From an uncultured Bacteroidales bacterium (GTDB lineage Bacteria; Bacteroidota; Bacteroidia; Bacteroidales; GCA-2711565), in NCBI GenBank assembly GCA_964399905.1, contig CAYNTB010000001.1, positions 1-31,755 of the forward strand: a stretch of DNA of 31,755 bases, given 5' to 3'. The notes below the pieces were generated by a model. The model saw only the letters and a list, made by a program, of their open reading frames with translations, searched no databases and had not been told where the DNA came from. The first letter of the stretch is position 1. Each line of letters starts with the position of its first letter. Of this stretch, positions 1,209-9,905 are shown piece by piece. The translations under genes and the position numbers were made by a program.

Positions 1209-4200
1209 ATGAAAAAAATTTTAATCATTGATGATAACCAAAAAGACTTATTTTCCTATGAGGCAATCTTTAACAACAAAGAACTAGCTTACAAAGCATT
1301 AACAGCAGACACTGGTGCACTTGGACTTGAATTAGCCAGAAAAGAAAAGCCTGATGTTATTATTATCGATGTAAAACTGCCGGATATAGATGGTTTTAGT
1401 GTTTGTAAAAGATTAAAAAGTGACACTTCCTTAAATTTCATCCCTGTCATCATGATTTCAGCCTGGGGAGCACAGAAAGATAATCGGCTCAATTCATTAA
1501 AAGCGGGAGCTGAAATATTTCTGTCGAAACCTATAAATGTTGATGAACTGCTGGCCCAGGTTAATGTATTGATCCGAATTAAAACAGATGAAGATAAACT
1601 ACGGAAAGAGAGGAATAAATTTGAAAAGCTTGCCAATGATAAAACCAACGAACTTAAAGAACTTAATAATTATCTAAACCTTCAGATTAAAAAAATGCCT
1701 GTGGGCCTCATAACCTGGGATGTCGATTTTAAGGTGATTTCATGGAATCCGGCTGCAACCCAAATATTTGGATATGGAGCTAAAGAAGCTTTTGGCAAAA
1801 CACCATTTGAAACCATCCTGGCGCCCGAATTACAACAAACAGTATCTGAACTTTGGAAAAAACTGCTTAAGGGAGATAAAAGCATCCAAAACATTAATAA
1901 AAACCTAACAAAAAAAAGGAAAACAATTGTTTGCGAATGGACCAATACCCCACTCATTGACGAAGATAAAAAGGTTATCGGTGTAATGTCGATGGTAAAA
2001 GATATTACACCTGAATACTACCAGCAGCGTTTGGAAAAAGGAATGAACACACTCAATAAAGCCCTTTTATCAAAAACTGGGATGGAATTTCTTAAACAAT
2101 TTGTGATTCAACTTTGTAAAGTACTCGAAGCTGATATGGCTTATATTGGCTTGCTCGAAGACGATCAAAAAATGATCTCCAGTATTTCTGCCGCCCAAAA
2201 TGGAAACTTGTTGGAAAACTTCAATCATCCAATAAAAGAGACTGCCTGTGAAGAGGTTACCAAGGGCCAAATTTGTTCATTCCCCAAAAATATTACCAAA
2301 CTATTCCCCAATGACAAATTTGTTAAAGGCTTAAAAGCTGAAGCAGTTATTGGTTTGCCTTTATTCGACACCCAAAACAAAGTGATCGGTATTGTTTCAT
2401 CCGTTTTTAAGAATCCGAATAACGAAATAAACTATCATGAGCAACTCATTCAAATTTTCACCACGCGGATTGCAGCTGAAATTGAGAGAATAAGTTTTGA
2501 TCAAAAAATTCGTGAAAGTGAAAAACAATTTCGCGAAATGGTCGAGAAATTTCCATATCCGATGGCTCTGACAAAAGGCGATCAATTTATATACCTAAAC
2601 CAGAAGTATACGGAAACCTTTGGATATTCGCTTGATGACATTCGAACTTTTAACGATTGGTTCAAAAAAGCATATCCGGATGAAAAATACAGGGAACTGG
2701 TCAGAAGCAGTTGGAACGAAGCTGTTGAAATTGCCAGGATTAATCATGAAGAAATTAAAACTCAAGAGTGGAATTTGAGAACTTTGTCGGGCCAGATAAA
2801 AACATGTGAGTATAACACTGTTCCACTGGCTGACTCTTCTCTTATCGTTATGAATGACATTACCAAGCGCAAACGCAGCGAACTTATACAGACTGTATTG
2901 TATCAAATCTCAAACGCAGCAAACACAACCAATGATTTGGCAGAGTTTATTAAAGTCATTCGCGAAGATCTTGGAGCTGTTTTAGACACGACGAATTTTT
3001 TTGTTGCCTTTCATGATGAAGAAAAAGATATTTTATATACCCCTTATGAAGTTGATGAAAAAGATGAATTTACTTCCTGGCCCGCTGCAAAATCATTAAC
3101 CGGTTATGTCATTAAAAACAAAAAACCTCTGTTTGCCACCAAGCAAGATATCAAGCAGTTGCACAAAGAAGGCAAAATTAATTTGATTGGCACAATTGCA
3201 GAAGTATGGGTTGGAGTACCATTGATTTTGGAGGGGAAAGTATTGGGCGCATTCGTTGTTCAAAATTACGATGACCCCAACACATATAGCCGGAAAGATG
3301 TACAACTACTGGAATTCATTTCCCACCAAATCAGCATTTCCATCCAAAGAATTCAGAATAAGATTGAGCTTGGAAAGGCATTGGAAAAGGCACTTGAATC
3401 CGACCGGCTGAAGTCTGTCTTTTTATCTACCATGTCGCATGAATTAAGAACCCCATTAAATGCCATTATCGGATTTTCCGAACTGATTAATGCAAAAACA
3501 AAGCCTGAAGATATAGAACGCTTCGTTAAAACAATTTATAATAGTGGGAATTTGTTGCTTGAACTTGTTGAAGGCCTCTTCGACATTACACTTATTGAGG
3601 CTGGTGAAATTAAAATTGAAAAAGAATTTCATAACTTAAAACTCATCATTGATGATGTGGCGGATGTTATCGATGCCGAAAGAAAAAAAACAAACAAACA
3701 AAATATAAAATTTCATATCTCTGAATATCCTTTCAACAATGAGCTGCAAATTTATACAGACAGTTATAAATTAAAACAAATACTCCTTAACTTATTAAAA
3801 AATGCCCTGAAATTTACCCATGAAGGTGCAATCAGACTTGATCTTTCAAAGGAAACGATTGGGAAAGAAAGTTTTGTGAGGTTTGTGGTTCGGGATACAG
3901 GAATTGGAATCCCAAAAAATAAATTGAATTTTATTTTTGATATATTCAGACAGGCAGACGACTCCCATACCCGAAAATATGGGGGTGCAGGAATCGGTTT
4001 ATCGGTGACAAAAAAACTAACCGAACTCTTAGGTGGAAACATTGAAGTTAAATCAGTGGTAAATAAAGGAACAACATTCTATGTCAATATTCCGCTTACA
4101 GCAAATAATATCAAGCCTAAAAAAACACCCTTAAATAATCATAAAGTTGAAATTATTTATCCCAATAAAACCATACTTATTGCCGAAGATGATGATTCCA

Positions 4201-4523
4201 GCATGACATTGCTTAAAATTTACCTAAAAAAACTCGGTGTTAAAATTTTACACGCTACAAATGGGAAAGAAGCCCTCGAAGTATTTCGAAGCAAACCCGA
4301 TCAGATTGATCTGATATTAATGGACATCAATATGCCTTTAATGAATGGATATGAAGCAGTGACTGAAATTAAGAAGATCAATTCAGCCGTTCCCATCATT
4401 GCCCAGACCGCATATGCCATTTCAGGTGACCGAGAAAAAGCCTTACAGAATGGCTGTGATGATTATTTGTCAAAACCTATTAATAGTGATCAGTTGATAC
4501 ATATGATTAAGAAATTCCTATAA
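1209..4523 (+). CDS. Soluble hybrid sensor histidine kinase (REC-PAS-GAF-PAS-GAF-HisKA-HATPase-REC)
   Basis: N-terminal receiver (IIIDVKLPDIDG), PAS (WNPAATQIFGY), H-box MSHELRTPLN, N box NLLKNALKFT, G1 DTGIGI, G2 GAGIGL, C-terminal receiver (LMDINMPLMNG). No transmembrane segment is evident. Confidence 0.93.
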   Translation: MKKILIIDDNQKDLFSYEAIFNNKELAYKALTADTGALGLELARKEKPDVIIIDVKLPDIDGFSVCKRLKSDTSLNFIPVIMISAWGAQKDNRLNSLKAGAEIFLSKPINVDELLAQVNVLIRIKTDEDKLRKERNKFEKLANDKTNELKELNNYLNLQIKKMPVGLITWDVDFKVISWNPAATQIFGYGAKEAFGKTPFETILAPELQQTVSELWKKLLKGDKSIQNINKNLTKKRKTIVCEWTNTPLIDEDKKVIGVMSMVKDITPEYYQQRLEKGMNTLNKALLSKTGMEFLKQFVIQLCKVLEADMAYIGLLEDDQKMISSISAAQNGNLLENFNHPIKETACEEVTKGQICSFPKNITKLFPNDKFVKGLKAEAVIGLPLFDTQNKVIGIVSSVFKNPNNEINYHEQLIQIFTTRIAAEIERISFDQKIRESEKQFREMVEKFPYPMALTKGDQFIYLNQKYTETFGYSLDDIRTFNDWFKKAYPDEKYRELVRSSWNEAVEIARINHEEIKTQEWNLRTLSGQIKTCEYNTVPLADSSLIVMNDITKRKRSELIQTVLYQISNAANTTNDLAEFIKVIREDLGAVLDTTNFFVAFHDEEKDILYTPYEVDEKDEFTSWPAAKSLTGYVIKNKKPLFATKQDIKQLHKEGKINLIGTIAEVWVGVPLILEGKVLGAFVVQNYDDPNTYSRKDVQLLEFISHQISISIQRIQNKIELGKALEKALESDRLKSVFLSTMSHELRTPLNAIIGFSELINAKTKPEDIERFVKTIYNSGNLLLELVEGLFDITLIEAGEIKIEKEFHNLKLIIDDVADVIDAERKKTNKQNIKFHISEYPFNNELQIYTDSYKLKQILLNLLKNALKFTHEGAIRLDLSKETIGKESFVRFVVRDTGIGIPKNKLNFIFDIFRQADDSHTRKYGGAGIGLSVTKKLTELLGGNIEVKSVVNKGTTFYVNIPLTANNIKPKKTPLNNHKVEIIYPNKTILIAEDDDSSMTLLKIYLKKLGVKILHATNGKEALEVFRSKPDQIDLILMDINMPLMNGYEAVTEIKKINSAVPIIAQTAYAISGDREKALQNGCDDYLSKPINSDQLIHMIKKFL

Positions 4524-4625: not shown

Positions 4626-5321
4626 TTAGTCGTTCTCTAAATCTTCTTTATTTACAAGCTTCCAACCTCCAATCATTGATGATGTCACCCCATTCCGTTC
4701 AATGTAATCATGGTATGCAACCAAATAAATATGTATGATTGCAAAAATGATGAAAAACCACATCAATACATGATGTATGTTACGGACAGCCAAATCTCCT
4801 CCAAGAATTGGAACAATCCATGCGAACAATTGTGGGAACCAGGAATCACTCATTGCGGCATACAGCCCAAATCCGGTCAGGCTTTGCAATAGGAATGCTA
4901 AAAATGTTAGGAAATAAGTAAAAGCTGCCAGTGAATTATGCCCGACTGAAACGGAAGACCCGTTTGTAACCTGCATAATATCAAGCTTTAAAACTTTCCA
5001 TATCTCAACCCAATGTTTCTTTTGAAATGGGATGAAATGATACCATCTTGAATATTTATTCCCCACAAAACCCCAATATATCCGAAACAAGAAATTGAAA
5101 AAGAAAAGGAAAGCTGCAATAAAATGAGTAAACCTGATGATCCCGAACCAATAACCAAAAGAAGCCTCTGCCGAACTTTGAATGGCAGGCGGATTTCCGA
5201 TTAAATATCCCGTAACTGACAGAACAACGATGCATAAGGCATTAATCCAATGGTAAAATCTCACCGGCAATTGCCATACATATTCTTCGGTAATTATTTG
5301 AGTTTTTGTCTGCTTTTTCAT
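4626..5321 (-). CDS. hyaC: [NiFe]-hydrogenase b-type cytochrome subunit
   Basis: VWQLPVRFYHW, RFTHF, GHNSLA, IHH and IHIY heme-His motifs, four hydrophobic helices, directly downstream of the large subunit. Confidence 0.93.
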   Translation of the reverse strand: MKKQTKTQIITEEYVWQLPVRFYHWINALCIVVLSVTGYLIGNPPAIQSSAEASFGYWFGIIRFTHFIAAFLFFFNFLFRIYWGFVGNKYSRWYHFIPFQKKHWVEIWKVLKLDIMQVTNGSSVSVGHNSLAAFTYFLTFLAFLLQSLTGFGLYAAMSDSWFPQLFAWIVPILGGDLAVRNIHHVLMWFFIIFAIIHIYLVAYHDYIERNGVTSSMIGGWKLVNKEDLEND

Positions 5322-5390
5322 TCGATAATGATTTTAATTTTGACTTAAGCCACAGTTTGATTTAAAACACGCAGTTTAATTTTAAAATGA

Positions 5391-7109
5391 TCAAAAAGTT
5401 TGAATCTGATGTACATATGTGCCTTTCTCATCATAAAGATGGACTGCACATGCAATACACGGGTCGAACGAATGTATGGTTCGCAGTATTTCTATCGGAT
5501 TTTCCGGATCATCTATGGGTGTGCCAATCAGAGATTCTTCATAAGCAGATCTCTTTCCTTCTATATCTCTTGGCGAAGCATTCCAGGTACTTGGCACAAC
5601 CAGTTGATAATTATCGATTAATTTATCCTTGATTTTTATCCAATGTGCCAGTGCGCCCCGGGGAGCTTCCGTTAAACCTACCCCTTTTGCATCTTTCGGC
5701 CATGTTTCGGGTTTCCATTTTTCAGATGAATGGGTCCGTGTATCCCCATTTTTTATGTTCGCAAGCAATTGATTATAAAACTCTTTCGACCAATTGGTTA
5801 CCAACTGTGTTTCCAGCCCCCTTGCAGCGGTCCTTCCCAGGGTCGAAAACAATGCAGATACAGGAACATTCAGATGTTCCAGGGCCGCATGAACGACATC
5901 CTGAAATTCCGTTTTACCTGAGGCATATCCAACCAACATTCGTGCAAGCGGACCCACTTCCATGGCGTGTCCTTTCCATCGCGGTGTTTTTAACCAACTA
6001 TATTTAGCATTCACATCCAAATGTTCATAGGGTGGTTTCGGACCGGAATACTTCAGGTTGGTTTCACCATCCCAGGGGTGTTTACCTACCTGATCTCCAT
6101 CGGAATAGGTATACCAGGAATGAGAAATCTGTTCCTGAATCTGATCCGGATCAGTGGCATCAATGGGAATAACCTCCGCTAAATTTCGATTCAGGATTAT
6201 TCCTCTCGGGAATTTGAAACTGTCAACATCTGCATAGCCATTTGTGGGTAAATCACCATATGCCATATAATTTGTTAATCCGCCTCCGATTGCTCCCCAG
6301 TCTTTATAAAATGAAGCAATGGCAAGTAAATCGGGGATATAAACCTGATTAATGAATTCCTGGGCTTTATCAAATAGATTACCAACAAAGGCAAGCCGTT
6401 CAGCATTCAGCGCATTATTTTCATCCAGGTTAATGGCGCACGGGACACCTCCCACCAAATAATTCGGATGCGGATTCTTTCCGCCAAAAATGGTATGAAC
6501 TTTTACGATTTCTTTCTGCCACTCAAGGGCTTCAAGATAATGCGCAACTGCCATTAGGTTTGCTTCCGGAGGAAGTTTGTATGCATTATGCCCCCAATAA
6601 CCATTTGCAAAAATCCCCAACTGTCCGCTTTCAACAAACTTCTGAATTCTGTATTGAATGTCGGAAAAATAACCGGGTGAACTTTTCGGCCATTTAGAAA
6701 TACTTTGTGCAAGGGTCGAAGTTGCTTTTGGATCAGCTTTTAATGCTGAAACAACATCAACCCAATCCAATGCATGTAAATGATAAAAATGAACCACATG
6801 ATCCTGCATATATTGGGCGCAAAACATCAGGTTCCGGATAATATCCGCATTGGGTGGAACTACTATACCCAGCGCATTCTCAACTGTTCGGACAGAAGCC
6901 AATGCATGAACCGTGGTACAAACGCCACATACCCTTTCGGTATATGCCCATGCATCACGGGGATCTCTTCCTTTTAGGATAATTTCAATTCCCCTTACCA
7001 TGGTTCCTGAGCTGAAAGCATCAACGATTTTACCATCTTTAATTTCTGCTTCAACCCTTAGGTGACCTTCTATGCGGGTAATTGGATCTACAACTATTCT
7101 TTGTGCCAT
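5391..7109 (-). CDS. hyaB: [NiFe]-hydrogenase large subunit, group 1d-like
   Basis: RIEGH, L1 ERVCGVC, GGKNPHPN, L2 DPCIACAVH followed by a cleavable C-terminal extension. No selenocysteine codon. Confidence 0.97.
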   Translation of the reverse strand: MAQRIVVDPITRIEGHLRVEAEIKDGKIVDAFSSGTMVRGIEIILKGRDPRDAWAYTERVCGVCTTVHALASVRTVENALGIVVPPNADIIRNLMFCAQYMQDHVVHFYHLHALDWVDVVSALKADPKATSTLAQSISKWPKSSPGYFSDIQYRIQKFVESGQLGIFANGYWGHNAYKLPPEANLMAVAHYLEALEWQKEIVKVHTIFGGKNPHPNYLVGGVPCAINLDENNALNAERLAFVGNLFDKAQEFINQVYIPDLLAIASFYKDWGAIGGGLTNYMAYGDLPTNGYADVDSFKFPRGIILNRNLAEVIPIDATDPDQIQEQISHSWYTYSDGDQVGKHPWDGETNLKYSGPKPPYEHLDVNAKYSWLKTPRWKGHAMEVGPLARMLVGYASGKTEFQDVVHAALEHLNVPVSALFSTLGRTAARGLETQLVTNWSKEFYNQLLANIKNGDTRTHSSEKWKPETWPKDAKGVGLTEAPRGALAHWIKIKDKLIDNYQLVVPSTWNASPRDIEGKRSAYEESLIGTPIDDPENPIEILRTIHSFDPCIACAVHLYDEKGTYVHQIQTF

Positions 7110-7123
7110 TGTTACCTCCGTTT

Positions 7124-8221
7124 TTATTTAGTTTGAGAATCAGTTTTTTTTAGTCCTTTTTGGATCAATTTGCGTTTGCGGATATTCGTTGAAATGGCAT
7201 GTGCGGCAATTCCAACACCCGTAACAACACCTAATCCAAGTCCAATTTTATCAGCTGTTGTTTCGATTCCAAATCCCGGGAAACTTTGTAAATGCTGGTA
7301 GAATGGGCCATTGTCCCAGAAATTTGCTTCGCTGCATCCAATACATGGATGGCCGGATTGAATCGGGAAACTTACGCCATTGTTCCATTTAATGACGCCA
7401 CAAGAATTATACGTATTCGGTCCCCGACAACCAACTTTATACAGGCAATAGCCTCTTTTTGCATTTTCATCATCAAAGCTTTCAACAAATAATCCGGCAT
7501 CGTAATTGGGCCTTCGATAACAGGTATCATGCACTCTTCTTGAATAAAATGCTTTTGGCCTTCCCAATGCATCCAATTGAGGTATTCGGTCGAATGTTAA
7601 CAGATGAATTACCACCCCGGCCATTACTTCAGCTATTGGCGGGCATCCCTGAACATTGATGATTGGTTTCCCTTTAATTACTTTATGAACCGGTTTGGCA
7701 CCAGTCGGATTTGGTGATGCTGCCTGAACACAACCGGCAGAGGCACAATTACCCCAGGCTACAATTGCCTTTGCCCCTTCTGCGGCTTCATTCAGAATCT
7801 CATAAGCACTTTTCCCACCGATACAGCAATATCCATCATCCACCGTTGGAATTGATCCTTCGACCATTAATAAATATTCACCATGATATTTCTCCATGGT
7901 ATCATGCAATGATTTCTCAGCCTGATGCCCTGATGCTGCCATCAATGTTTCTGTATAATCCAGCGATATTTTATCAAGTACAATATCGGCCACTATCGGA
8001 TGGGATGACCGGATAAATGATTCGCTGCAACAGGTACACTCCTGTAAATGAAGCCATACAACCGGAATTCTTGATTTACTTTCAAGGGCTTTTGCAATTT
8101 GCGCCACGCCAGTCGCCTGCAATCCCATCATGGCACCCATGGTACCACAGAACTTCAAGAAATCACGCCGTGAATGGCCTTTCGCCCTGATTTCTTCATA
8201 AAGAGTTGGTTTCTTGTTCAT
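7124..8221 (-). CDS. hyaA: [NiFe]-hydrogenase small subunit with Tat signal and six-cysteine proximal cluster motif
   Basis: Tat motif SRRDFLK, ECTCCSESF, WGNCASAGCVQAA, medial/distal cluster cysteines (GCPP, HDTCYRR, CLYKVGC, FPIQSGHPCIGC), C-terminal membrane anchor. Confidence 0.97.
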   Translation of the reverse strand: MNKKPTLYEEIRAKGHSRRDFLKFCGTMGAMMGLQATGVAQIAKALESKSRIPVVWLHLQECTCCSESFIRSSHPIVADIVLDKISLDYTETLMAASGHQAEKSLHDTMEKYHGEYLLMVEGSIPTVDDGYCCIGGKSAYEILNEAAEGAKAIVAWGNCASAGCVQAASPNPTGAKPVHKVIKGKPIINVQGCPPIAEVMAGVVIHLLTFDRIPQLDALGRPKAFYSRRVHDTCYRRPNYDAGLFVESFDDENAKRGYCLYKVGCRGPNTYNSCGVIKWNNGVSFPIQSGHPCIGCSEANFWDNGPFYQHLQSFPGFGIETTADKIGLGLGVVTGVGIAAHAISTNIRKRKLIQKGLKKTDSQTK

Positions 8222-8248
8222 AATGTGAATAATTTATGTTAGTAATCT

Positions 8249-8455
8249 TTATTCAAATTCCTGGTCAACCTTTGAAATATGGTAGGATCCTTCAATGGTA
8301 ACCTTATCTCCCAAATGTTAGTTGCTCGATAAATTTGTCGATAACATTAAATACTTAGGCCGGCAAACGATTTTAATGATGCACTTTGAATCTTTTGCTA
8401 ATATTTCCATCACTTCACCCGATAACGTAAATTGCTTGATGTGCTTTGAAGGCAT
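8249..8455 (-). pseudogene. Small (68-codon) OB-fold-like hypothetical gene interrupted by one in-frame TAA at 8318-8320
   Basis: Manual translation gives MPSKHIKQFTLSGEVMEILAKDSKCIIKIVCRPKYLMLSTNLSSN*HLGDKVTIEGSYHISKVDQEFE*. The frame stays protein-like after the stop. The gene lies between the promoter-like box and hyaA. Confidence 0.55.
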
Positions 8456-8480
8456 CGCTTTTATATTTCAAAACTTCATA

Positions 8481-8496
8481 TGGCAATATCATGCCA
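8481..8496 (-). promoter_or_regulatory. Sigma54 (-24/-12)-like element or palindromic operator TGGCA-N6-TGCCA
   Basis: The minus strand reads TTGGCATGATATTGCC. GG and TTGC match the sigma54 consensus but are separated by 9 rather than 10 nt. The element sits about 26 nt upstream of the small ORF's ATG. Confidence 0.5.
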
Positions 8497-8621: not shown

Positions 8622-8654
8622 ACAGAATTCCGTAAAAATTACACGGAATTCCGT
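8622..8654. promoter_or_regulatory. Tandem palindromic sites, candidate upstream activator sequences
   Basis: ACAGAATTCCGT (8622-8633, one mismatch) and the perfect palindrome ACGGAATTCCGT (8643-8654), 21 bp apart and about 130-160 bp upstream of the -24/-12-like box. Confidence 0.6.
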
Positions 8655-8657
8655 TAA

Positions 8658-9647
8658 TTATTTGGCAGCGGAACAGCTATTGGGTGTAAGGTGGTATTTT
8701 TTCATTTTATCCCTGAATGTTGAAAGGCTCATTTTGAGGGATCTGGCGGCATCTGATTGGTTTCCTTTTGTGACCTTTAAAGTTTCACAAATCATGTGAC
8801 TCTCAACACAATTTACCACCTCATTAAAATCCAATTCTCCATTATTAAAGCAATTATGACAAGATTTTATTAAAGTTTCGGCTCGGTCATTTTGATTTAT
8901 CTCAGCTGGTAAATCGTGGCTATCTATATTTTTATCGGCAAATACAGAAATCCGGTGAATGACATTTCTCAATTCGCGAACATTGCCCGGCCAATCATAG
9001 CTGATTAATTTTCGCATAGCATCCAAACTTATATGTAATTGTTTTTGAGGGGCAAAACGTTTTAAAAAATGTTCAGCTAATAAAGGAATATCATCTCTAC
9101 GTTCCCTTAAGGGAGGAATTTCAATGGGAACAACATTGATCCGGTAATACAGATCATCCCTGAACCGCTTTTCACTTACCATCTTTCTCAAGTCAACTTT
9201 TGAGGCAGTGATTAAACGGATATCTATGGGAATCGAACGTGTACCCCCAAGTTTCATGATCTCACGGGTTTCGAGCACCCTCAATAACTTGGACTGAATA
9301 TCCAGTGAAACATCATCAATATCATCAAAGAAAAAGCTCCCTGTATTTGCCAGTTCGAACAATCCCATTTTATCATGAATTGCACTGGTAAAAGAACCCT
9401 TTTCATGTCCAAATAATTCGCTGGCAAGCAATTCAGTAGGCATCGCAGATAACCCAATTTTTACAAAGGGGTTTTGGCTTCGATTACTGATCTGATGAAT
9501 ATATTCTGCAAATATTTCCTTACCAACACCAGTTTCGCCAATAAGCAATATTGAAGTATCAGAATCTGCAATTTTATTAATGCGGTTGATAATCAATCGC
9601 ATTTGTTCATTGGCCGTAATGATAGAAATCGGTAGTTTCCCAGTCAT
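8658..9647 (-). CDS. Sigma54-interacting (bEBP) AAA+/Fis-HTH transcriptional regulator lacking an N-terminal sensory domain
   Basis: Walker A GETGVGKE, ELFGHEKGSFTSA (GAFTGA-like), FRDDLYYRINV, WPGNVRELRN, C-terminal HTH GNQSDAARSLKMS. The AAA+ domain starts about 8 residues after Met1. Confidence 0.9.
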   Translation of the reverse strand: MTGKLPISIITANEQMRLIINRINKIADSDTSILLIGETGVGKEIFAEYIHQISNRSQNPFVKIGLSAMPTELLASELFGHEKGSFTSAIHDKMGLFELANTGSFFFDDIDDVSLDIQSKLLRVLETREIMKLGGTRSIPIDIRLITASKVDLRKMVSEKRFRDDLYYRINVVPIEIPPLRERRDDIPLLAEHFLKRFAPQKQLHISLDAMRKLISYDWPGNVRELRNVIHRISVFADKNIDSHDLPAEINQNDRAETLIKSCHNCFNNGELDFNEVVNCVESHMICETLKVTKGNQSDAARSLKMSLSTFRDKMKKYHLTPNSCSAAK

Positions 9648-9674: not shown

Positions 9675-9905
9675 TTAAATATCGCCCATTTCCTTTAAGG
9701 CTTTGATGGTATCCAGGGCATCCTGTTTGTCAACAAGGCTAAGGGCTGTTCCAACATGTACCAGAACATAGTCGCCTACTTTGGCTTCGGGCAACCATTC
9801 CATACAAACATCTGTTATAGCCCCTCCAAAATCAACTTTCCCCATTTTAATATCCGGATTACTCTTATCAAACGATAGTATTTTTGCAGGTACAGCAAGG
9901 CACAT
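9675..9905 (-). CDS. hypC: Hydrogenase maturation chaperone HypC/HupF
   Basis: MCLAVP N-terminus and VGDYVLVHVG motif, 76 aa. Confidence 0.96.
   Translation of the reverse strand: MCLAVPAKILSFDKSNPDIKMGKVDFGGAITDVCMEWLPEAKVGDYVLVHVGTALSLVDKQDALDTIKALKEMGDI

Follow-up and report, generated by a model that had tools for sequence, protein, structure and literature searches.

The gene studied here lies at positions 8658..9647 on the minus strand of a 31,755-nucleotide (nt) stretch of DNA from an uncultured Bacteroidales bacterium (contig CAYNTB010000001.1, positions 1 to 31,755), and this stretch at its full length is referred to as the window. Its product, a protein of 329 amino acids (aa) called the activator below, is a bacterial enhancer-binding protein (bEBP) that lacks a sensor domain, and the comparison of related loci indicates that it is almost certainly a dedicated sigma-54 activator of the hydrogenase operon behind it. 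Our reading as a whole is that this is a functional dedicated activator from an uncharacterised clade of sensor-less proteins, with a remodelled ATPase and with control by a metal-binding cysteine triad, and we would put the probability of this at roughly 0.55. Within it, the assignment of the regulator to its sites, promoter and regulon is well supported by the aligned loci, and for the mode of control we favour, by analogy, a redox switch formed by a metal or Fe-S site where the AAA+ domain meets the DNA-binding domain. The hydrogenase regulators described in the open-access literature that we searched are proteobacterial (HoxA/HupR, FhlA, NifA). In that literature we did not find described, for Bacteroidota or Ignavibacteria, the control of uptake hydrogenases, any sigma-54 control of hydrogenases, or a hydrogenase-linked sensor-less bEBP. 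These groups are abundant in sediments, bioreactors and subsurface habitats, and the candidate regulator family, DNA site (tandem GCGGAATTCCGC), promoter class and regulon defined here make up a directly testable system.

The activator family and its regulon

The gene was delineated from its open reading frame (ORF), its Pfam matches and the alignment of its homologues, and the reading frame cannot be lengthened upstream. Pfam divides the protein into Sigma54_activat at residues 9-176 (E 3.5e-62), AAA_lid_14 at 181-257 and a Fis-type helix-turn-helix (HTH) domain, HTH_8, at 281-318 (8694..8807, minus strand; E 3e-10). The first of these (PF00158) scores 209.4 bits against a cut-off of 20.2, with profile positions 1-168 covered. 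Only 8 residues precede the AAA+ domain and the Pfam scan found no receiver (REC), PAS or GAF domain, which bears out the first claim of an earlier reading made from the letters alone (the sequence-only reading), namely that the protein has none of the three. A fold search of the PDB returned ordinary bEBPs only, and the solved structures closest to the activator among the structure matches are NtrC1, ZraR, FleQ and NtrX. No NCBIfam equivalog reached its cut-off; the best were PrdR, NifA, AtoC and NorR, all of them far below, with the NifA model TIGR01817 at 303.6 bits for a cut-off of 528.85. The PspF equivalog TIGR02974 gave 253.5 bits (cut-off 443.55) and the FhlA model 264 bits (cut-off 830).

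More than 120 homologues, with identities of 58-99%, came out of a search through 5.8 billion proteins, and the alignment has 121 sequences. All homologues are 313-340 aa long with the same three domains as the activator, and those with a named source come from Bacteroidota, Ignavibacteria and Terriglobia. For comparison we used about 140 generic bEBPs, which are representatives without a close family member and served for the outgroup motif statistics. Against this background the positions Y49, L66, D109, D111, K150, C263, C266, C280 and L308 are invariant and specific to the family; at the last of these, in the HTH domain, generic bEBPs carry an Arg. The sequence-only reading had proposed a phylogeny against the Sigma54_activat family. 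In a tree from a quick IQ-TREE search on the AAA+ domain alone, with the cysteine region excluded, all sensor-less proteins form one clade with a Shimodaira-Hasegawa-like approximate likelihood ratio (SH-aLRT) support of 97, the core family has 98, and the motifs are fixed across this clade. The gene is under strong purifying selection when compared with a conspecific assembly (ratio of nonsynonymous to synonymous rates, dN/dS, about 0.04), and against an 84%-identical relative the proportion of nonsynonymous differences (pN) is 0.097 with synonymous sites saturated. As far as sequence comparison can tell, the motifs of the activator are beyond chance, since they are fixed in a well-supported clade and the gene is under purifying selection, and the activator belongs to an undescribed but widespread family of stripped-down sigma-54 activators.

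The operon that we take as the target is on the same strand at 4626..8221 and was identified with Pfam. It consists of the genes for the [NiFe] small subunit (hyaS, 7124-8221), the large subunit (5391-7109) and a cytochrome b (4626-5321). The gene hypC (9675..9905, minus strand; ORF and Pfam) is co-oriented with the activator gene and lies 27 nt upstream of it, just as the sequence-only reading had it, and the two are probably co-transcribed. The same reading had placed the activator at the head of the hydrogenase operon, and this has to be corrected: the gene is the second of a hypC-regulator pair, and a non-coding regulatory region of 436 nt separates it from hyaS. The same or a similar hyp-regulator order is found in L004, L030, L031 and L060.

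Linkage of the homologues to hydrogenases, another check that had been proposed, is strong. Among 25 mutually distinct family loci, [NiFe] structural genes are found within 10 kb in 20, and in a further one the family gene follows hypABFCDE. In the genome collection this was the case for 9 of 10 family loci, in several gene orders, and three further contigs (L029, L030 and L031) add hydrogenase or hyp contexts: in one, from Terriglobia, the family gene is beside a soluble-type [NiFe] enzyme and a HycI protease, in the second it comes directly after hypA-B-F-C-D-E, and the third reads hypCDE, regulator, small ORF, hyaS, hyaL, cytb. When 400 genomes of the phylum were sampled, the family was present in 12, and nine of these have a [NiFe] large subunit that is always less than 7 kb from the regulator; the background of hydrogenases in the phylum sample is 111 of 401 genomes.

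Some family members appear to have other targets. The loci L053 (10452-17319) and L055 (1092-9123) have no [NiFe] genes nearby, and their operon encodes a Fer4 protein, NuoE- and NuoF-like flavoproteins, a CBS-HATPase protein and a PHP protein, a gene set reminiscent of bifurcating hydrogenase or oxidoreductase operons. In L010 of Bacteroidota (6496-8481) the regulatory module stands before a small ORF that is followed by a multihaem cytochrome with a C-terminal sorting domain of the type IX secretion system (T9SS).

The link between the regulator and these operons comes from the DNA upstream of hyaS. The aligned loci share a layout of two GCGGAATTCCGC palindromes 21-22 nt apart, a -24/-12 element of the form YGGCAN-N5-TTG[CA], usually an ORF of 67-81 codons, and then hyaS. 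Equivalent tandem sites occur in 24 related loci, and the -24/-12 element is 62-65 nt (or 120-170 nt) downstream of the palindromes in all training loci. In the window, upstream activator site (UAS) 1 is predicted from this comparison at 8643..8654, 3 nt after the regulator stop, as the perfect palindrome ACGGAATTCCGT, and site 2 is predicted by weight matrix at 8622..8633, 21 nt from site 1, as ACGGAATTCTGT (minus strand). When a palindrome weight matrix made from 17 sites was used to scan for tandem pairs, the 2.6-Mb assembly to which the window belongs gave exactly one pair (8622/8643), which is the one directly behind the activator gene, compared to no pair in five shuffles. This pair is identical in three other assemblies of the species. 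Twelve held-out genomes gave exactly one pair per locus, always before the hydrogenase or alternative target operon and again with a -24/-12 element 62-65 nt (or about 120-170 nt) downstream, and further held-out matches were found in L010, L011 and L031. No tandem pair was found in 15 hydrogenase loci lacking the regulator or in about 211 kb of unrelated loci. The arrangement of tandem palindromes and promoter is the classical enhancer-dependent geometry, and it links the family both to sigma-54 and to these operons. The comparison of loci indicates that activator dimers bind the two GCGGAATTCCGC-type palindromes, two helical turns apart, behind the regulator gene, and that the bound activator turns on the -24/-12 promoter of the small ORF and, behind it, of the [NiFe] subunit genes (small, then large) and the cytochrome b gene.

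The promoter of the window itself is recognisable only via the orthologous loci. A scan of the window for canonical sigma-54 promoters (TGGYAYN5TTGCW, one mismatch allowed) gave 6 matches versus 5.2 expected, none of them intergenic. The box that is homologous to the promoters of the relatives is TGGCATGATATTGCCA at 8481..8496 on the minus strand, a -24/-12-like element of the form GG-N9-GC and so one nt short. The 84%-identical relative has TGGCATTAATCTTGCC, and the window box has one base fewer than this between GG and GC. The box at 8481-8496 is at the same time an inverted repeat, TGGCA-N6-TGCCA.

Behind the promoter lies a small conserved first gene of 68 codons (8249..8455, minus strand), delineated by comparison with other assemblies, which is interrupted here by an in-frame TAA. 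This stop is private to the metagenome-assembled genome (MAG) that the window comes from; the three further assemblies L060-L062 read TTA and have an intact 68-aa product called. In almost every group-1 hydrogenase locus of the family, the small ORF comes first after the sigma-54 promoter. Its profile hidden Markov model (HMM) matches family loci, including L010 with its cytochrome target, and does not match the 15 hydrogenase loci without a regulator, so the product tracks the regulator and not the hydrogenase. It was not detected in the hydrogenase loci L054, L056, L058 and L059 or in the NuoE/F loci L053, L055 and L057, and Pfam gave no match to it. Two loci of Bacteroidota, L005 (10966-13800) and L008 (4078-6110), have three UAS-promoter modules in a row each, standing before genes without an assigned function (one with a weak lipocalin-like match), before the small ORF alone and before hyaS.

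The ATPase site and the sigma-54 contact loop

The sequence-only reading had described altered catalytic motifs, giving GSFTSA for GAFTGA, FFFDDIDD for Walker B and IGLSA for the usual VNCAA. These are all present (GHEKGSFTSA, SFFFDDIDDV and FVKIGLSA in the translation), and the 121-sequence alignment shows how each of them behaves in the family; the coordinates that follow are on the minus strand. Walker A is GETGVGKE at residues 37-44 (9516..9539), where G37, E38, T39, G40, G42, K43 and E44 are invariant and V41 is kept in 115 of 121. G65 (9453..9455) is at the position of the glutamate-switch Asn, which we take to be that of PspF N64 on the basis of the conserved VNCAA motif; the family has G in 99, A in 11 and S in 11 sequences here, and the residue covaries with the DD of Walker B. 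The L1 loop GSFTSA, a GAFTGA variant, covers residues 84-89 (9381..9398). G84 and T87 are invariant and A89 is found in 120 of 121, with S or A at position 85, F or Y at 86 and S, N or G at 88. The AlphaFold2 (AF2) model of the activator, which has an overall predicted local distance difference test (pLDDT) score of 82.8, drops below 50 at residues 82-90, in line with a mobile loop.

Walker B is SFFFDDIDD at residues 104-112 (9312..9338), with D109 in place of the catalytic Glu. D108, D109, D111 and D112 are present in 121 of 121 homologues, while position 109 is E in 130 of the roughly 140 generic bEBPs. An active-site change that the sequence-only reading had not listed is K150 at the sensor I position (9198..9200), giving ASK where generic bEBPs have ATN. 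All 120 family members with a residue counted here have K, compared to N in 112, K in 10 and H in 10 of the generic proteins. The FRxDLYYR segment of the arginine-finger region and NVRELRN are invariant or nearly so in the family.

These changes go together beyond the family too. We counted covariation in 150 representatives of 50%-identity clusters. Of 131 with Walker B DE, 112 have the switch Asn, while only 4 of 14 with DD have it, the others having S, G, A or E. Lys at sensor I is found in 14 of 14 DD proteins and in only five DE proteins, three of which are in the sensor-less clade. An identical Asp/Lys/Ser set recurs in another, well-supported clade (SH-aLRT 95) of receiver-containing NtrC-type regulators of 450-470 aa, and it would seem to be a natural, so far undescribed substitute for the Glu/Asn "glutamate switch". 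The members of this clade are P0153, P0162, P0175, P0187, P0192, P0196, P0206 and P0227, with lengths of 366-470 aa (450-470 in seven of the eight) and the switch Asn mostly replaced by Ser. Seven were checked and align over their full length to NtrC/AtoC-type response regulators, and none of the seven reached an NCBIfam equivalog cut-off.

Published mutants can help to judge what such a site could do. PspF E108D gives wild-type-like ATP-dependent activation on duplex DNA despite a lower ATPase, and PspF N64S still engages RNA polymerase-sigma-54 (PMC4132715). Variants of GAFTGA at positions 2 and 5 (GSFTGA, GAFTDA, GAFTHA) are compatible with activation (PMC4641369), and GAFTSA, GAFTNA and GAFTDA are present in ordinary bEBPs among our representatives. 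Given that the changes co-vary across the lineage, also in receiver-type bEBPs, and that PspF E108D is active, the catalytic site does not look decayed. Of the earlier claim, then, the changes themselves stand and the suggestion of an impaired or unusual enzyme is not supported. Most probably both the ATPase and the contact to sigma-54 work, though the kinetics may be changed, and the site would be remodelled (Walker B Asp, sensor I Lys, Gly/Ser/Ala switch) but functional, as suggested by the covariation and by the PspF mutants. The Asp/Lys/small-residue set would then be a natural co-varying alternative to Glu/Asn/Asn that bears on the glutamate switch model.

The cysteine triad and the proposed control of the activator

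Constitutive activity would be expected of a protein made of only AAA+ and HTH domains, and some form of control is therefore needed; the cysteines are our candidate for it. The activator has them at 263, 266, 280, 287 and 325. The sequence-only reading had pointed to a cluster of four with a fifth in the tail, and this held up in part. C263, C266 and C280 (CxxC-x13-C) are present in 121 of 121 homologues, so that the CxxC conservation it had asked about extends to a third cysteine, and they are absent as conserved positions from generic bEBPs. C287 is not conserved, with K, N or R in relatives. C325 (8673..8675, minus strand) in the C-terminal tail is partly conserved: 49 sequences have a residue at this position, and in 36 of them it is Cys. 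It is missing from the short-tailed Ignavibacteria members and, judged from the alignment, could serve some of the family as a fourth ligand. The alignment thus defines a module C263-x2-C266-x13-C280-x-E282 (8802..8861, minus strand) where the AAA+ lid passes into the DNA-binding domain, and apart from the ATPase and the recognition helix this triad is the one feature specific to the family. In the AF2 model a helix at 255-268 carries C263 and C266 one turn apart, and after a turn a helix at 274-292 carries C280, which is inside the first helix of the HTH domain. If the model is right, the three cysteines would face one another in an antiparallel hairpin.

Metal or redox sensing by this triad, as an Fe-S or metal site, is plausible by analogy. 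Regulators such as NsrR and IscR of the Rrf2 family use three cysteines, and VnfA is a precedent for an Fe-S bEBP. In OrpR, three Cys and an Asp/Glu hold a redox-sensitive [4Fe-4S] cluster (PMC8359166). Control of the activator could then come from the C263/C266/C280 triad on the hairpin between the lid and the DNA-binding domain, where an Fe-S cluster or a different thiophilic metal may be bound. Depending on its redox state or occupancy, this site could gate the formation of dimers, the binding to DNA or the way in which the DNA-binding domain is coupled to ring assembly, and the hydrogenase and other low-potential electron-transfer operons would in this way respond to the redox or O2 status of the cell. 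Since some family members have targets that need no nickel, a general redox or O2 signal fits better than one specific to nickel. Should the triad turn out to sense a metal or the redox state, sigma-54 activators would have a signal input at a position new for this class of protein. A more specific version, which we put forward tentatively, is that the triad represents a new type of built-in sensor, an Fe-S or redox-metal site between the ATPase and the DNA-binding domain, forming a minimal one-component O2/redox switch for hydrogenase and low-potential electron-transfer operons in Bacteroidota, Ignavibacteria and some Acidobacteriota, to which the small first-gene product might add a PspA-like feedback.

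Several points weigh against our reading and can be taken together here. No clear tandem site was seen within the DNA examined for L029 and L030. The locus L066 (G081:C51:1-5000) is a hydrogenase locus with tandem palindromes (sites 1767/1789), a canonical -24/-12 element and the small ORF, and despite this cis-module no family regulator was found in its assembly (G081), which has an estimated completeness of 100% in 330 contigs. In the species of the window the GG-N9-GC box means that activation is not assured there. The box is the same in L060-L062, the relatives have the canonical N10 spacing, and since four independent assemblies agree the short box is not an assembly error. The sequence-only reading had wanted rpoN confirmed in the genome, and the answer is divided: rpoN (PF04552) was not found in the MAG of the window, which is 78% complete in 456 contigs, but it is present in 20 of 20 relatives searched, including all 12 of the same genus. 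The MAG also has 19 PF00158 matches, at least 10 of them full-length besides the activator. For the triad, the pLDDT of the linker in the AF2 model is only 62-75, only three cysteines are invariant with no conserved family-specific fourth ligand found, and E282 is general to HTH_8 domains and not family-specific.

The alternative with the best claim, a definite minority possibility in our view, is that the protein is a true sigma-54 activator in which the triad is a structural Zn-like site, so that it would be constitutive and controlled by its amount, through hypC-regulator transcription or, where the gene ends the hydrogenase operon, through positive autoregulation. [quoted passage not shown] OrpR without its PAS domain is constitutive and so provides an example of a constitutive AAA+-plus-HTH bEBP (PMC8359166). 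In L006, L007, L009 and L012, the Ignavibacteria case, the regulator gene follows hyaS-hyaL-cytb-hycI on the same strand, which would permit feed-forward expression. However, structural Zn sites usually keep four ligands and only three are invariant here. Additionally, P0161 and P0145 have lost one Cys and P0203 all of them with the fold kept, which fits an add-on regulatory site better, and a dedicated hydrogenase activator without environmental input would be unusual.

Control in trans in the manner of PspF and PspA is rather unlikely. Here the small first-gene protein (about 68-81 aa) would bind the regulator and either feed back on it or relay a maturation signal, with the cysteines maybe serving as an interface. 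Sensor-less bEBPs are classically controlled by partners (PMC4641369). The small ORF comes first behind the promoter in nearly all group-1 loci, its HMM tracks the regulator, the apparent exception L066 does carry the UAS and promoter, and in L005 and L008 the ORF has a UAS-promoter module of its own. Despite this, its absence or lack of detection in seven family loci means that it cannot be a universal controller. Its pattern is beta-rich and like that of HypC-type chaperones, which makes a maturation role equally likely, and it has no Pfam match and an in-frame stop in the window. No PspA-like gene was found near the activator.

Two further accounts are very improbable. A degenerate ATPase working away from sigma-54, as a sigma-70-type activator or a repressor like HupR/NtrC of R. 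capsulatus or TyrR, would agree with the replaced Walker B Glu, switch Asn and sensor I Asn, the altered GAFTGA, the short box of the species and the rpoN missing from the MAG, but T87 and F/Y86 of the L1 loop are kept, about 24 related loci have a canonical -24/-12 element whose distance to the binding sites is fixed, the same active-site set is found in ordinary receiver-type bEBPs, PspF E108D is active, rpoN is present in 20 of 20 relatives, and the MAG has at least 10 other full-length activators. Nickel sensing by the triad, linking hydrogenase expression to nickel supply, is suggested by the [NiFe] enzymes among the main targets and by the position of the gene among hyp genes, but it is hardly to be expected when the same triad is found in members whose targets, NuoE/F-type flavoprotein operons and a multihaem cytochrome, have no need for nickel, and when known Ni sensors are generally His-rich or have His/Cys square-planar sites, with no conserved family-specific His near the triad here.

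Known systems and further observations

Comparison with the described families helps to place the activator, which has the general features of a bEBP yet lacks the defining ones of the PspF, NifA, OrpR/VnfA and HoxA/HupR/FhlA families. PspF and HrpR/HrpS have the same make-up of AAA+ and C-terminal HTH with no N-terminal sensor, and as dedicated regulators they each serve one neighbouring operon or a few. PspF, however, has N64, E108 and a canonical GAFTGA with control by PspA in trans, whereas the family of the activator has the Asp/Lys/Gly set and the Cys triad, and by sequence the activator is less similar to PspF than to NtrC1 or ZraR. NtrC1 of Aquifex aeolicus (PDB 1NY5/1NY6) is the closest solved structure by sequence, with 43-45% identity in the AAA+ domain and a GESGVGKE-type Walker A; unlike the activator it has a receiver, a canonical N/E/N set and GAFTGA, and no Cys triad.

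The placement of the cysteines is like that in the O2-responsive NifA of alpha- and beta-proteobacteria. NifA has four of them, in the spacing C-x11-C-x19-C-x4-C, compared to C-x2-C-x13-C in the activator, and it has a GAF domain and nif targets, neither of which applies here. VnfA of Azotobacter carries an Fe-S cluster on conserved cysteines. In OrpR and VnfA the cluster is in an N-terminal PAS or GAF domain, whereas the cysteines of the activator are C-terminal to the ATPase and there is no such domain. OrpR of Desulfovibrio vulgaris has three conserved cysteines too and shows Fe-S gating of sigma-54 activation in an anaerobe (PMC8359166).

HoxA, HupR and FhlA are NtrC-family proteins dedicated to hydrogenase operons like the activator, and HoxA and FhlA are sigma-54-dependent. 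The receiver of HoxA/HupR is under the control of HoxJ/HupT and an H2-sensing hydrogenase, and FhlA has formate-binding N-terminal domains, none of which is found here. Neither a regulatory hydrogenase nor a conserved kinase was found in the family loci, so that the suggestion of a logic other than that of HoxA/HupR was sound in that the activator is sensor-less and no kinase is conserved nearby. The window does contain a hybrid sensor kinase of 1104 aa (PAS-GAF-HisKA-HATPase with two receivers; 1209-4523, plus strand) that converges on the cytochrome b gene. We considered it as a partner of the activator and rejected it: it recurs only in the closest relative, and the activator has no receiver domain.

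Other features of the locus concern the hydrogenase itself and its neighbours. The small subunit (7124-8221, minus strand) has ECTCCSE and GNCASAGCVQAA, which are the extra cysteines of O2-tolerant [4Fe-3S] hydrogenases. ECTCC was tried as a mark of the regulated hydrogenases and dropped, as it occurs in all 20 regulated small subunits but also in most unregulated ones in the phylum sample. The genes for hypA and a maturation protease are just upstream in the window, which also includes genes for GldH and LpxR, a pair indicative of Bacteroidota. In the closest relative, HGW-Bacteroidetes-17 (L004, 12538-14182), the large-subunit gene matches in two pieces with a 2-nt overlap, which suggests a frameshift or an assembly error.

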